Program-made: the position numbers | Source: Escherichia coli | Lineage (GTDB): Bacteria > Pseudomonadota > Gammaproteobacteria > Enterobacterales > Enterobacteriaceae | Length of the DNA: 64,000 nt | Strand: one strand, 5' to 3' | NCBI RefSeq assembly: GCF_046105845.1 | Contig: NZ_CP151004.1 | Shown: in pieces, positions 59,001-64,000 of the stretch | Position numbering within the stretch: the stretch's first letter is position 1 | Layout of the letters: every line of letters starts with the position of its first letter

Positions 59001-62000
59001 CGCGCACGGTAACCTGGTTGAAGGGGGCGAGTCCTTACTGTCTGGTGATAACGTAATAGTGGAAGGAGCCGTACGTTCAGGAGGATGGTCTGAAAACGCC
59101 GGTGTTTATACTGCTACATGGTCGGCGCAAATGGCGGGAGACTCTCACCACGCGACGCTGAAGTTGTCTGAGTGGGGCAGCAGTAAACAATCAGAGAGTT
59201 ATTCCATCCACAGTGGTGCTCTGGTGCAGGCAAATTCAGCCATCAGGACAGATAAATCGGCATATATCGCCGGGGAGCCATTAACCGTCACAGTAACGTT
59301 ACGGGATGAGTTTGGTAACCCTGCTTTAGGGCTGACATCAGAAGTCATCGAGTCTTATATCGATAATTTCGCGGTAGGCGGCGCAACTCCCGATTCTCTG
59401 CAGTGGGTCGAGCAGAATAATGGTGAATATACCATTGTCTGGACAGCATGGGTTGCCGAGGAAAATCTGGTTGCCAGTCTGAAATTAAAAACATGGGGAA
59501 CGGAGATTAAGTCCTCATTATACGGGATACAACCAGGTGCGGCGGCAAAATCTCAATCCACGATAGTCACGGACAAAACGAAATATATCGCTGGGGATAG
59601 CATAACGGTGACCGTTGTTCTTAAAGATGCCCAAGGTAACTTTATTACTGATGGTGTTGTTCAGCTTAATGAGGAAAACGTACAAGTCAGGAACGCTGAT
59701 TCTATTCAAGGCAATAATTGGATATACAATGGCAATGGGCAATATCAAAGACAGTATATGGCACATTTTGCGGAAGCGAATTTGAATGCGCAACTGAAGA
59801 TGGCGGGTTGGGTCGATGCCAATTATTCAAAAAGCTACACTATTAACAGAGGTGAAGTAAGTAAGTTTCGTTCACAGCTTCGTATACACGAACTTTTAGT
59901 GGTAGCTGGGGCGGATATACCTGTCAGTGTTTTATTAGCTGATGAATTTGGCAATCCTGTGAATGACGGTCTGGATTTGCTGACAGATGATGCAGTGTAC
60001 TTACAAAATGTGGAAAAGAAACATTGGTCCAGTTGGACATTTGTAGGTGATGGCAGATATGAGCGTACCTATATGGCCTACAAAGAAGGAGAAAACTTAA
60101 ACTCATATCTACATATTAATGGTTGGTATGTAGACGGGCAACCGTCTTATACCATCCTTCCTTTTGTGGAAGTCGAGTCGCTGAGTGTTAATGGTGCAAA
60201 ATTCAGGGCGGCAGATGGTTTTCCAAAAACAGGGTTTGATGGTGCTAAATTTACACTGATATTAACTCACAATATGAAAAACACGGATTATAATTGGACC
60301 AGCGGTATACAGGGTATTCAGGTCGATAGTAATGGCATGGTGACTTTAGAATATATTCTAAAGAACGAAATTACTATTACAGGAACGCCGAAAAGCAATA
60401 AAGGGAATAAAGTCACATATAGATTCTCACTGCAGAAATGGTTTTTACCCCAAGGGGATTTTCAGGAAGCATGGAGTGTAATTAATTCATATTGTAGTGA
60501 TAGGGGCTATAGATTACCGTCTAGTACGGATATAGTGGGGAGTGCAACTAGCGGTGCTGTCCCGCGAAAAGTAGGTTCGTTATGGGGTGAATATGGTAAT
60601 CTGACTTCTTATGACGGAATATTTCGCTCTGAACATTATTGGCTCGACAGCGGTATGATATTTTATCCAGGAGATGGTCATCTCTCGATAGCGTCACGTT
60701 CATCCGCATTGTGTTTGCAAGAGTTCTGATGTTACTTATATTTTTGCCCTGCATATGCAGGGCAATTTATCTTAGTTCTTACGCAGAAGTACGCATCACA
60801 CCGATAGTATTAAATTCATTTTTTACACTGAGCAAACGGGGGTCATGAAGCAAAACATTTGACCATAAATCATTGTCTTTAATTAATTGTTGCCAGCGCT
60901 TTTCATATTCTTTTTTACCATACACAGTGTAAATCAACGGCAAAATAACACCATTGATTTTGTTGGTGTTAATATTTGCCAGTAACTTCATAATGTCATT
61001 TTTTATAGATGCGCCATAGATCAGAAATTTCGTATAAAGCGAGTTAACACAGGTGTAATCAAGACCATGTTCAGGCTCAAGTTTAAGCAATAAACTTTTG
61101 GCTTTGTCATTATGTCCTTTCAGTGCCATGAACATAGCCAGAATAGAGGTAATAATTGGATTATTACAGGTGTTTTGACTGTTAAGATTTAATGCAAAAG
61201 ATATCGCGTTATCGAGGGGGGATGTGTAATAAAGTATAATTAATTTAAGAATGCTTATACCCATTTTATTGGGTTCAAGAGCAATACTTTTTTCTATTAG
61301 ATTAAATGCTCTTGCAAGGTCACCGTTCAAAAAACATAGCAGAGACTGATAATAATAAACGTCTGGCGAATTAGGTTTGAGTAAATGTGCTTGCTTAAAT
61401 AGCACATTAGACACTGAATGTTCATCTTTTAGCCCACTGATTAAACCCAGTAAACCCAATGCCTGAGAATTTGAAGGGTTAATTTCAAGAGCCTTTTCAA
61501 TGGAGGTTACTGCCGTAGTTATTGCTTGTTTTTGTTCACTGAGTCCAAGGAGGGCTAATGATATATGGCATTCCGCCAGGCAACAGTAGGGCAAGGTATT
61601 TTGCGGTTGCGTACTCACACAATCTCTAAATATTACTAATGCTCGTTTCAAACTCTCTGGTGTATAACGATACATTTCCATTCTGCCATTCATATACATA
61701 ACAGCAGAATCCAGAGATGGCATTTGTTGTGTATTAATAGATTTAAAATTAATGTTGGGTATTTTTTCAATAAGAATATTAATTACTTGTGATAATAATA
61801 CGGAAAGAGGATTATCGGGGTGGAAATCAATACTTTGATGATCAATCAATTTATGTGTTCTGGCATGAATTAACTCAATAAATAAACGCCAGTTTTTACC
61901 ATAGTGAACGACCTGACCCATAATATAATATTCTGGACCTGTTTTATTGATAAACTGATGGATAGTGGAAAAATCACTGGCCTCATTTGTTACCGAAGCG

Positions 62001-64000
62001 GGTAAAATATCTAAACCACAAAAAGCATATTTAGAAAGGCCCTGGACAAGTTCGTAATGGAGTTTTAGAACATTGATCGAACCTTCAGTACGAAAGGGAA
62101 AAACGGCAAGAGTGGTGGTCGACTTTACCGGTTCATTATCGGTCACAATCACAATAGGTACAGTAAAACGGTATCCACGACCATAGACCGTTTCGATATA
62201 CTTACACTGTTTATTCTCATGCAAAAGTTTGCGCAATGCATAAATACATCGTGTTAGAGATTCATCACTGGCAACACTCGCGCTCCAGACCTTATCGATA
62301 ATCTCTTCTTTGCTAACAATTTCACCGTCAGCATTAAGCAATAGAATAATAACGCCAAGTTCTTTCGGGGGAATATGATATTCTTTGTTTTTGAATAATA
62401 ATATTCCATTGTTTTTTAATACAAAGTCGCCAAATATATATTGTTGTGTATTATTTTTTCCATGTTGCAGTTGCATAGAACGCTCCTTCCGTTTTCTCTA
62501 TTCATAGTATTAATTTGATTAATATAAAATAAAGTATTGGCAGAATTGCTCTATCAAAAAACGCTCATTTTGTAAGATTGTGATGAAGAAATGAATGAAA
62601 GTTGATGCTTAATAATATGAAACGCTGGTCCCATTTTTCGGGACCAGATAGTGGGCGATAATTGTGGGTGTTACTTAATCAGAAACGTAAATAATCTTTC
62701 GCAGAATCAAACAACGCAGTAATGGTTGAAGATAATAATTTGATAATTGTATCGTAGGTGGAGTTGGCTGTACTGTATTTAGTCGTGATAACCTGCACGT
62801 CGGTTTTCATGTTTTCTGCCTGGCTGTTATAACCCGCCAGCCATGCCTGGTATTCAGCCGTGCTTATTTCGTAGCCGGTGAATTCTTTAGATATATTTTT
62901 TTCCTTCCCTTTATCGTCCCTATGAACCATTGAGTCTGAAGACTGACTCATACTGTCTATAATCTGAGGGTTGGGAATAATAACATACAGACCGCTACCT
63001 TGCGGTTCAACTTCGACAATCGGAGAAGGTGTGCGGTGTTTGGGATCGGGTGGAATTACCGGAAGTCCTAAAGCGGCGCACCATTTTTCTGCTTCTTCCA
63101 GTGGAACACCAATTTTGTCAGCTGGTGCCGGAGGGTATAAAACATAGTCTGGATTGTAATGATAGTGGAAATCACCATTAGGATATTTATCGATATAATA
63201 AAAATGCATCAAGGCCTTTTGAAATGCATTGACATCAAAAACTATCGCATCACCTTTTTTATTAGAGTGAGTCCACTTTCCCATATTGCTTTGGATATGT
63301 TCACTGAAGTCCTGCCAGTATGCGCTCATTATCTCAACGCTATTTGCATAGATTTCGAGGTAGTCGCTACCGAGCACACTCATCAAATCAGCAATATCAC
63401 TGCATATATATTTATCACTTTTAAATTCGCTTGAACTACTGGCCGTTAAAGTACTGCTGGTTGCTGAACTTCTCACTTCAGGTGCAGAACTCTCTAAAGA
63501 AGCGATAGCGTGAGTTAAGGTTCCTTTGGTCGTTGCCATTGCAATTGACCCGGTTGTGTTGTGAGCAACGTTAGCCAGGGTTTTTCTCACAGAGTTATGC
63601 AGGGTCAATATTTTAGCGGGATCCTTTAATTTTCCGTCAATAGTATTAACATTTTCTGTAAGCTGCAGAACGTTTTTTATCAGCGAATAACTTTCGTGTA
63701 AGAGCGCAGATCCTTTCTCTGACAGGTTCTCAGTTGGGAAATTTCTGAGCATGTTTTTAACGAAGTTGAGTTGTATGTCATGCTGGCATTTCCAGTCTTC
63801 ATTTCGCGGGCTACGTTCACTGACTAAAGTTGATAGTTTTTCAACATCTTTCTTGAGCATAGCGCCAATATTATTATCTTTACTGGCGCTGTTATACAAA
63901 TTACCCTCGCTTTTGCTGTTTTCCAGTTGATGAGACTCCTCACTTTGCGAGGATGCCTCTTTAAGAGGAATGTTTGCATTCTGCTGACGTAAAATATCTA

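Follow-up and report, generated by a model that had tools for sequence, protein, structure and literature searches.

An eilA orthologue in the eip island of Escherichia coli and a candidate InvF/MxiE-type box in its promoter

Virulence typing of Escherichia coli makes routine use of eilA and air as marker genes; the regulon of EilA was reportedly published in 2006. EilA was described in enteroaggregative E. coli (EAEC) 042 by Sheikh et al. 2006, as related in PMC4210603. According to the summaries in PMC4210603 and PMC7058095, the genes upregulated by the 042 protein are eicA-eipBCD, the convergent adhesin gene air/eaeX, and eivF and eivA in ETT2; control of the eip genes and the adjacent adhesin, which a preliminary description had ascribed to EilA, is in these summaries already published for 042. 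EilA complements a Salmonella hilA deletion and activates invF, and 042 YgeH likewise complements hilA (PMC4210603). The eip genes are linked with an intact ETT2 in PMC7058095 and PMC11068852, which also summarise the EilA regulon. EivF and EicA/YgeG are homologues of an AraC-type activator and a class II chaperone, respectively (PMC7232297 Table 1; PMC9241512), and O157 EivF together with YgeG failed to activate MxiE-box genes (PMC9241512).

The current work concerns a 64-kb stretch of an E. coli chromosome, here called the window, in which an intact ORF of 565 codons with an ATG start occupies exactly the eilA interval given in Table 1. Its product equals EilA of EAEC 042 (EC042_RS21315, UniProt D3H2F7) in length and shares 561 of 565 residues with it, the four substitutions (N9T, H219N, N503S and D534E) being conservative; it is 100% identical to WP_001176826.1. 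With the NCBIfam equivalog model for HilA/EilA, NF009037, the protein scored 952.3 bits (cut-off 589; E=6.8e-287), its residues 1-552 covering positions 2-553 of the 553 in the model. With the YgeH model NF008870 the score was 228 bits, below the cut-off of 800, so the protein is not YgeH. Near-identity to the characterised 042 protein places it in the EilA orthologue group, and RefSeq uses the name eilA for the same gene in 730 of 5426 complete E. coli genomes. The proposed identity is thereby borne out by the 561 shared residues, the unchanged location within the eip island and the RefSeq name. The gene has a GC content of 35.3% vs 51-55% across most of the window, and had rightly been called AT-rich.

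Table 1. Features of the eilA region and further box copies, with positions in the 64-kb window
Feature	Position	Strand	Basis or remark
Second exact box copy	33469..33485	+	Upstream of AT-rich ORF 33686..34993 (435 aa); TGAAAT 21 nt after box
Third exact box copy	35076..35092	+	Upstream of AT-rich ORF 35209..36705 (498 aa); TGCAAT 21 nt after box
air/eaeX/iatC, giant Ig-repeat inverse-autotransporter adhesin, 4190 aa	48157..60729	+	ORF; RefSeq iatC, or air in 042
9-bp GC-rich hairpin in 49-nt gap between convergent stops	60744..60765	.	-16.8 kcal/mol on both strands
eilA coding sequence	60779..62476	-	ORF; NCBIfam equivalog; near-identity to 042 EilA
TPR-like alpha-solenoid, codons 257-555	60812..61708	-	
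Central alpha/beta domain of HilA family, codons 121-238	61763..62116	-	AlphaFold2 secondary structure
OmpR/ToxR-type winged-helix DNA-binding domain, codons 11-112	62141..62446	-	
Ribosome-binding site GGAAGGAG, 6 nt before ATG	62483..62490	-	Sequence; kept in E. coli and E. albertii
Predicted -10 hexamer TATTTT of eilA promoter	62526..62531	-	Spacing and conservation only
InvF/MxiE-type promoter box ATGAGCGTTTTTTGATAG, 18 nt	62551..62568	-	Exact match to 17-mer ATGAGCGWWTTTTGATA
Hairpin directly after eipD stop	62625..62647	-	Terminator-like site; -14.7 kcal/mol, z -3.9
eipD, SipD/IpaD-family needle-tip gene	62679..64000, open to window edge	-	TIGR02553 SipD_IpaD_SspD, E=3e-39

The identical protein occurs on at least 1000 contigs. 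Of the 22 nucleotide differences from the 042 allele, 17 are synonymous, as are all 7 that separate eilA here from the WP4-S18 allele; this bias indicates that eilA is under purifying selection. Plasmid carriage (1 of 731 matches) was considered and rejected: the records are a 4.9-Mb chromosome that had been entered as a plasmid and a 13-kb non-mobilisable fragment, leaving no real plasmid copy. The gene itself is already known, and nothing in it is new.

Salmonella HilA is the nearest described relative outside E. coli. In a BLASTP comparison, EilA 9-552 aligned with HilA 10-553 over 544 residues with 36% identity, 60% positives and zero gaps (E=2e-129). The comparator was the representative of a Salmonella enterica HilA cluster whose members are named HilA [Salmonella enterica] by NCBI; a HilA sequence 97% identical to this cluster served solely as the probe. 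The alignment runs colinearly past the winged helix and through the TPR-like C-terminus. Similarity along the full length had been proposed and is upheld by this comparison, as it extends beyond the winged helix. The five peptide strings given in the preliminary description all occur in the translation: PPKELGVIILLLNADGEIVSKEEIIDKVW at residues 36-64, SLTRCIYALRKLL at 73-85, YIETVYGRGYRF at 92-103, ALGLLGLI at 339-346 and LFKQAHLLKP at 359-368.

EilA and HilA share the same three-domain architecture (Table 1). As in the rest of the family, the N-terminal OmpR/ToxR-type winged helix of EilA stands without a receiver domain, and the two proteins hardly differ in recognition helix and wing (ESLTRCIYALRKLL / YIETVYGRGYRF in EilA, ESLTRCIYALRRIL / YIETLYGQGYRF in HilA), although EilA as a whole is only 36% identical. 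All three domains contain residues invariant among the 24 family members compared; those of the central domain include A124, P127, F128, P159, T163, P181, G187 and E201. AlphaFold2 modelled EilA with a mean pLDDT of 81.8; a TPR solenoid makes up the C-terminus of the model, and its winged helix matches ToxR bound to DNA. YgeH, the second HilA-like regulator, whose gene lies within ETT2, belongs to the same family and is homologous over residues 14-446, but it has 458 aa vs the 565 aa of EilA, is without the last ~100 residues and lies at another locus.

The gene order, nepI / air-eaeX-iatC (+) / eilA (-) / eipD (-), was obtained from the window ORFs and from collinear annotation of three genomes including 042. 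In 042, too, the eip island adjoins selC and has eilA flanked by air/eaeX and eipD, with the same box, predicted -10 hexamer and ribosome-binding site; the adjacent adhesin has 4190 aa here vs 3806 aa in 042, and the present chromosome represents a more divergent lineage. The stops of adhesin and eilA are 49 nt apart in convergent orientation, and eilA follows 202 nt downstream of eipD on the same strand. The ORFs and the TIGR02553 match agree with the position first assigned to eilA, between a giant adhesin and a SipD-like gene. The eipD frame is stop-free up to 63998, and its start should lie ~28 nt past the window, the full gene having 449 aa in NZ_AP022087.1; a truncated eipD of 406 aa with a TTG start was dismissed as an artefact, since the frame is open to the window edge. 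The eipC, eipB and eicA genes belong past that edge, and the island order was read up to eipD. In at least one strain, eipD is frameshifted.

Two hairpins flank eilA. That in the gap between the convergent stops has z values of -4.8 and -5.3, with a U-tract after it on the plus (adhesin) strand only. The stem of the hairpin behind eipD is kept in E. albertii and its U-tract is weak; it is possibly a terminator or attenuator separating eipD from eilA. No Rfam match was found in 60-64 kb of the window.

According to the annotation of the collinear genome VCSW5, the rest of the window is the syntenic dnaA-to-nepI core. The window ORFs and this synteny revealed no type III apparatus gene within the 64 kb, in agreement with the earlier statement that the window holds no secretion apparatus genes. 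Over 24 kb of core, no complete E. coli genome exceeds 98.3% identity to the host chromosome. An island more conserved than the core was considered as a sign of recent transfer and discarded, the island identities being mosaic (eilA 99.9% and eipD 97.2% to VCSW5); these mosaic values look like ordinary recombination.

EilA is a cytoplasmic one-component regulator whose N-terminal winged helix binds promoter DNA; the C-terminal TPR-like solenoid probably mediates protein contacts. It is the HilA-family transcription activator encoded by the eip ('selC-B') island, in E. coli strains whose ETT2 is still complete, and, as HilA does, it may counteract silencing of AT-rich island DNA. The allele of the window may be expected to activate type III secretion promoters by analogy with the 99%-identical 042 protein, which does so in Salmonella (PMC4210603). 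This reading as a whole, an eilA orthologue in an eip island with anti-silencing and EivF feedback as inferred components, is given a probability of about 0.9.

The promoter of eilA carries an element that may connect it with the rest of the system. The 17-mer ATGAGCGWWTTTTGATA occurs exactly 3 times in the 64-kb window and 0 times in 100 shuffles. Of these copies, one stands ~75 nt before eilA, and the others precede two uncharacterised, Escherichia-only ORFs located between ilvN and uhpA (Table 1). The predicted TATTTT starts 20 nt after the eilA box, compared with 20-21 nt in six other box promoters and 21 nt in PsicA, and transcription is predicted to start near 62519. Comparison of E. coli with E. 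albertii shows that the sequence tTATTTTAT and the box are conserved and that the spacer is not. In 042, WP4-S18 and VCSW5 the box likewise stands upstream of eilA; it has 1 change in E. albertii and 2 changes at a homologue source-labelled E. fergusonii. The same box precedes eicA and ygeF-ygeG in related genomes, EspL2/ShET2-like, EspX-like and EspY4 genes of 042, and EspX-like genes in E. albertii. In a divergent eip-like island, it was found before the chaperone gene, and none before the eilA-like gene. A scan of contigs for the 17-mer gave at least 120 matches, mostly single chance matches in unrelated phyla; among the matches listed, three from E. albertii alone were informative.

The closest described elements are the MxiE box of Shigella and the Salmonella promoter PsicA. 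Like them, the present box is a 17-bp element that contains a CG, a T-run and A-n-A and precedes chaperone/translocon operons and effector genes; it would replace the -35 element, 20-21 nt before a weak predicted -10. PsicA, read directly from sequence, has GGGCGTTTTTTGAATG followed by TTTAAT 21 nt later, the same layout as at eilA. The full MxiE box consensus is GTATCGTTTTTTTAnAG, and the eilA box differs from this consensus at 4 of 16 specified positions. In the 5' half, TGAG of the eilA box stands against GTAT in Shigella and TGGG in Salmonella. The Shigella box has 17 bp, its end being 33 bp away from the start site downstream (PMC3299695); among the positions given there, G6, T7-T12, A14 and A16 are present in the eilA box, and G1 and T13 are absent. 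The E. albertii box has A at position 6, where G is essential in Shigella.

These likenesses suggest that eilA is transcribed from a promoter in which an InvF/MxiE-type box replaces the -35 element. Such a box would be read by EivF, the AraC-type activator of ETT2, acting with EicA or YgeG as its class II chaperone. EilA activates eivF, and EivF with free chaperone would in turn activate eilA, eicA-eipBCD and dispersed effector genes; because the eilA promoter carries the box, this pair would feed back onto eilA. Salmonella hilA is driven by HilD, HilC and RtsA. No InvF-type box was found within 10 kb of Salmonella hilA, unlike eilA with its box 75 nt upstream, and in Salmonella such a box does not precede the HilA-type regulator gene. 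Moreover, hilA is situated inside the apparatus island, whereas eilA belongs to a separate translocon/adhesin island ~0.9 Mb from the apparatus. It is conceivable, at somewhat less than even odds, that eilA stands within a loop rather than at the top of a cascade as Salmonella hilA does, and that ATGAGCGWWTTTTGATA is a previously undescribed ETT2-type box marking a genome-wide ETT2 regulon.

The box upstream of eilA might instead be the site of a HilA-family protein, EilA or YgeH, implying autoregulation rather than control by EivF. Within the 17-mer, ATGAG and TTGAT form a direct repeat (TGA...TGA) spaced 11 bp apart in the geometry of OmpR/PhoB-type winged helices, and the 17-mer is placed where the HilA box lies, at about -45. 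Just upstream are four TTCAT pentamers (4 observed vs 0.45 expected), which resemble the TTTCAT-N5-TTCCAT repeat read in Salmonella PprgH. The box itself, however, has no sequence resemblance to the PprgH repeat. The derived pattern TTYCAT-N5-TTYCAT occurs at chance level in the window (1 match vs 1.5 expected), its sole match lying inside the eilA coding sequence, and a published consensus for the HilA box was not found in the literature searched. The nearest match in sequence and spacing is to PsicA and the MxiE box (PMC3299695), which respond to an AraC-type activator with its chaperone, and the other genes with a box are chaperone/translocon operons and effector-type genes, as expected of the InvF/MxiE class and not of HilA. 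Autoregulation through this site is regarded as unlikely.

The preliminary caution that the window alone cannot show an injectisome was right; eivF, too, and the eip genes beyond eipD fall outside the window. A complete 16.2-kb ETT2 apparatus block is present in VCSW5, the closest core relative, with 99.0-99.2% identity to 042 across carriers; among the matches listed, the complete block is carried by at least 11 of the 25 genomes whose eilA region is nearest. This genome probably carries it too, at glyU, because every close relative cross-checked has the complete block there.

If ETT2 were absent or decayed in this strain, eilA would be a functional orphan, regulating mainly the adjacent adhesin and biofilm or adherence, with no secretion output. 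The published phenotypes of eilA and air mutants, adherence and biofilm, fit such a role, as does the lack of apparatus genes in the window. In most E. coli, ETT2 has been eroded by mutation (PMC7058095, PMC11068852), ETT2-dependent secretion was undetected in ST69 strains (PMC7058095), and even in 042 and VCSW5 PGAP flags a YscQ-family gene as frameshifted and a SpaN/EivJ-family gene as split. Against this, eip and an intact ETT2 co-occur both in the literature and in every relative cross-checked, and the three box copies in the window are perfectly conserved, which argues that an activator reading them is still present. We consider an orphan role improbable for these reasons. That eilA is a silent relic without current function is far less credible still: its AT-rich, horizontally acquired sequence, its poor expression in LB (PMC4210603) and the frameshifted neighbour eipD in some strain would suit a relic, but the frame is intact with the exact protein so widely distributed, substitutions are strongly biased to synonymous sites, promoter and ribosome-binding site are kept out to E. 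albertii, and an eilA promoter reporter was active in ST69 strains (PMC7058095).

If eilA does belong to an EivF-dependent loop, the two uncharacterised ORFs between ilvN and uhpA would be members of the ETT2 regulon, as would the 'orphan' EspL2/EspX/EspY-type genes. Whether ETT2 secretes at all, and which substrates, are questions of twenty years' standing, and the box may bear on both. It would provide a sequence-based list of candidate ETT2 substrates.

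Judged from sequence, the window carries an intact eilA gene in its normal island position. The 565-aa frame named in the preliminary description is present in the ORF listing, with an ATG start, all five peptide strings quoted from it (5/5) occur in its translation, and it is AT-rich as stated (35.3% GC, and 33.2% in the upstream spacer, vs 51-55% for most of the window). The proposed EilA identity holds as well: 561 of 565 residues are shared with EilA of EAEC 042, the strain where EilA was characterised. In BLASTP against the representative of the Salmonella enterica HilA cluster, residues 9-552 aligned with HilA 10-553 (E=2e-129; 36% identity, 60% positives, 0 gaps), so that the similarity runs the full length, as had been claimed, and is not confined to the winged helix; the identity agrees with the 37% of PMC4210603. 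The NCBIfam HilA/EilA equivalog NF009037 (cut-off 589 bits) scored 952 bits over model positions 2-553 of 553, and the YgeH model stayed below its threshold (228 bits vs 800). Pfam placed Trans_reg_C over residues 31-104, with weak TPR signals from 312 to 425, and an alignment of 24 family members contained invariant residues in all three protein parts.

The eilA region (megablast, query 60000-64000) was detected in 730 of 5426 complete E. coli genomes, in which RefSeq names the gene eilA. WP_001176826.1 is 100% identical to the window protein, and this exact sequence is on record in at least 1000 contigs; the allele of E. coli VCSW5 matches at 564/565 residues. The 042 allele differs at 22 nucleotides (17 of these changes synonymous) and the WP4-S18 allele at seven, all synonymous. 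With differences this largely synonymous, eilA is maintained and not decaying.

The window, which begins at dnaA, is collinear with VCSW5 over its whole length. As had been described, eilA lies between a giant adhesin and a SipD-like gene, in the order nepI, iatC/air (+), eilA (-), eipD (-); in related genomes eipC, eipB, a small ORF, eicA and yicS ... setC, selC lie beyond eipD. This arrangement is that of the eip or 'selC-B' island known from the literature (PMC2808357, PMC7058095, PMC11068852). The stop codons of adhesin and eilA are 49 nt apart, and eilA lies downstream of eipD across a 202-nt spacer. A 406-aa eipD frame in the ORF listing was considered as a truncation and rejected: the frame is open up to the window edge and the annotated start in related genomes is ~28 nt past position 64000, so that eipD is cut by the window. 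In E. coli RMDEC465, eipD is annotated as frameshifted beside an intact eilA, a sign that the island is partly decaying in some strains. Adhesin length differs with the count of ~97-aa Ig-like repeats: 3806 aa for 042, 3705 aa for WP4-S18, 3996 aa for VCSW5 and 4190 aa here. Just outside the island, collinearity with three annotated genomes places a RelE/ParE toxin gene and an HTH antitoxin gene between yicN and nepI. A divergent second eip-like module, in genomes labelled E. coli, occupies a different chromosomal site with IS remnants at its flanks; it contains inverse autotransporter, chaperone, SseC-like, EipC-like and SipD-like genes and an EilA homologue (57% identity).

No type III apparatus genes were found within the 64-kb window, as the preliminary description had stated. 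Indirect evidence suggests that this genome probably encodes an injectisome elsewhere. A search with the 042 ETT2 apparatus block (16.2 kb) gave matches at >=80% coverage in 932 of 5426 genomes; the 60 matches listed include 11 of the 25 genomes that were listed as nearest in the eilA region, the other 14 lying beyond those 60. In VCSW5, which is the closest core relative, the block is present at 100% coverage and 99.0-99.2% identity, and all genes from yqeH through eivF are in place at glyU. Co-occurrence of eip with intact ETT2 has been reported (PMC7058095, PMC11068852). In the PGAP annotation of both 042 and VCSW5, the YscQ-family gene (epaO) carries a frameshift flag and the SpaN/EivJ-family gene is recorded as split, with identical defects in the two genomes; the 042 ETT2 is counted as intact in the literature despite these flags. 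The window core (20000-44000) reaches at best 98.3% identity among the 5426 genomes, most being near 97.5%. Two Hong Kong soil isolates come closest, and their eilA is 99.9% identical. According to a 2026 preprint, air and eilA are generally present in Escherichia clade I; this clade, or another poorly sampled lineage, may be the source of the window.

Positions of features in the window and, where a locus is named, in fetched comparison loci
Feature	Position	Strand	Remark
AT-rich insert, ~3.3 kb	33400-36850		ilvN to uhpA interval; 32-34% GC
Insert ORF, 435 aa	33686..34993		AT-rich; paralogous to next
Insert ORF, 498 aa	35209..36705		AT-rich
Box copy 1	62568-62552	-	~75 nt before eilA ATG
Box copy 2	33469-33485	+	precedes 435-aa ORF
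Box copy 3	35076-35092	+	precedes 498-aa ORF
RelE/ParE and HTH genes	~45900-46600		
Ig-repeat inverse-autotransporter ORF (air/eaeX/iatC), 4190 aa	48157..60729	+	ORF listing; convergent with eilA
GC-rich hairpin	60744-60765		between air and eilA stops; -16.8 kcal/mol
eilA	60779..62476	-	
Ribosome-binding site GGAAGGAG			6 nt before eilA ATG
TTCAT pentamers	62577-62624	-	just upstream of eilA box
Hairpin	62647-62625		directly after eipD stop; -14.7 kcal/mol
eipD, SipD/IpaD family	62679 to past window end	-	same strand as eilA
Box sites, 042 (L003)	35513-35529; 47526-47542; 47634-47650	-; -; +	other side of dnaA
Exact box, Escherichia albertii NBRC 107761	L015 200-216; L016 8448-8464; L017 6006-6022		
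YscQ-family and SpaN/EivJ-family defects	L005 40296-42117; L006 17703-19525		PGAP annotation
TTTCAT-N5-TTTCAT, 042 ETT2 (L005)	32461-32477	-	~90 nt upstream of LuxR-type gene (ygeK/etrB position)
Second eip-like module	L008/L009 1-11692		
Frameshifted eipD, RMDEC465 (L135)	2501-2898		

Comparison of the eilA and eicA upstream regions revealed a common 21-mer, which is unchanged upstream of the chaperone gene of the second module. Written as the 17-mer ATGAGCGWWTTTTGATA, it has three exact copies in the window vs 0 in 100 dinucleotide shuffles. Among fetched loci, exact copies precede eilA and eicA in 042, WP4-S18 and VCSW5, ygeF-ygeG within ETT2, and eicA of E. albertii. Copies with one to three changes precede E. 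albertii eilA and the gene of P0010, a HilA/EilA homologue that one source labels E. fergusonii and that is encoded beside apparatus genes. On the other side of dnaA in 042, the box lies 60-125 nt before a ShET2/EspL2-family effector gene (1 change), espY4 (3 changes) and a pentapeptide-repeat (EspX-like) gene (1 change); these sites are in line with ETT2 secretion of non-phage effectors, as suggested in the 042 genome paper. In a scan of reference genomes (298 Gbp), the matches listed were scattered and single, near the estimated chance rate of ~1 per 2 Gbp, except for three in E. albertii, which precede 736-aa and 385-aa pentapeptide-repeat (EspX-like) ORFs and a 178-aa ORF beside nhaR. Among the matches listed, multi-contig matches otherwise came only from Clostridium magnum and an uncultured Clostridium MAG, each with two single matches on separate contigs.

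The box resembles the Salmonella sicA promoter, which in a Salmonella contig reads GGGCGTTTTTTGAATG with TTTAAT 21 nt later, and the Shigella MxiE box, whose full consensus is GTATCGTTTTTTTAnAG. These elements are read by the AraC-type proteins InvF and MxiE bound to the translocator chaperones SicA and IpgC. The 17-bp MxiE box stops 33 bp short of the start site; its conserved positions are G1, G6, T7-T13, A14 and A16, with G6, T10, T12 and A16 as the essential ones (PMC3299695). These four are retained in the eilA copy, tgAgCGTTTTTTgATAG. In every case the box is followed after 20-21 nt by a weak -10-like hexamer (TGAAAT, TGCAAT, TGAAGT, TGATAT, TAAAAT, and for eilA TATTTT, the predicted -10). 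In the alignment of E. coli and E. albertii eilA upstream regions, the box, tTATTTTAT and the ribosome-binding site are kept and the spacers have diverged. Within 10 kb of Salmonella hilA, no InvF/MxiE-type box was found.

Just upstream of the eilA box, four TTCAT pentamers occur within 40 nt vs 0.45 expected from shuffles, and TCATCA of this cluster is kept in E. albertii and the E. fergusonii-type locus. In sequence, but not in spacing, these hexamers are similar to the TTTCAT-N5-TTCCAT repeat of Salmonella PprgH; the cluster may be an EilA or YgeH site. An exact TTTCAT-N5-TTTCAT occurs in the 042 ETT2, where total matches to the PprgH-like pattern are at chance level.

The insert between ilvN and uhpA, present at >=80% coverage in 450 of 5426 genomes, encodes two ORFs that share 26% identity across 340 aa (E=8e-28) and have no Pfam or NCBIfam matches. 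The 498-aa ORF has 47 homologues, every one unnamed or hypothetical and labelled E. coli. An exact copy of the T3SS-type box ATGAGCGATTTTTGATA stands before each of the two insert ORFs, and both are candidate effectors of the ETT2/eip regulon.

The eilA gene, its family, island and regulon are published and the gene is already RefSeq-named; the promoter box may be the sole new part of the finding. No description of an EivF box was found in the literature searched, the original EilA paper lying outside that search. The ETT2/eip homologues of the InvF/MxiE activators and SicA/IpgC chaperones are EivF and EicA/YgeG (annotation; PMC7232297 Table 1; PMC9241512). Going by the box, eilA would be transcribed from a predicted EivF/chaperone-dependent promoter. 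Alternatively, a winged-helix protein could bind the TGA repeat of the box, which has 11-bp spacing. Against control by EivF stand O157 EivF and YgeG, which did not activate MxiE-box genes (PMC9241512), and the divergent island L009, in which the box is absent before the eilA-like gene.

According to PMC4210603 and PMC7058095, the 99%-identical EilA of 042 activates the eip genes, air/eaeX, eivF and eivA; it is also able to replace HilA (PMC4210603). Its winged helix would bind target promoters and relieve silencing of AT-rich DNA. H-NS represses ygeH (PMC4210603), and no report of H-NS repression of eilA itself was found in the literature searched. In the EivF-dependent reading, EilA would activate eivF, and EivF with its chaperone would in turn activate eilA, eicA-eipBCD and the effector genes. 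We put the probability of this feedback loop and its box-marked regulon at roughly 40%.
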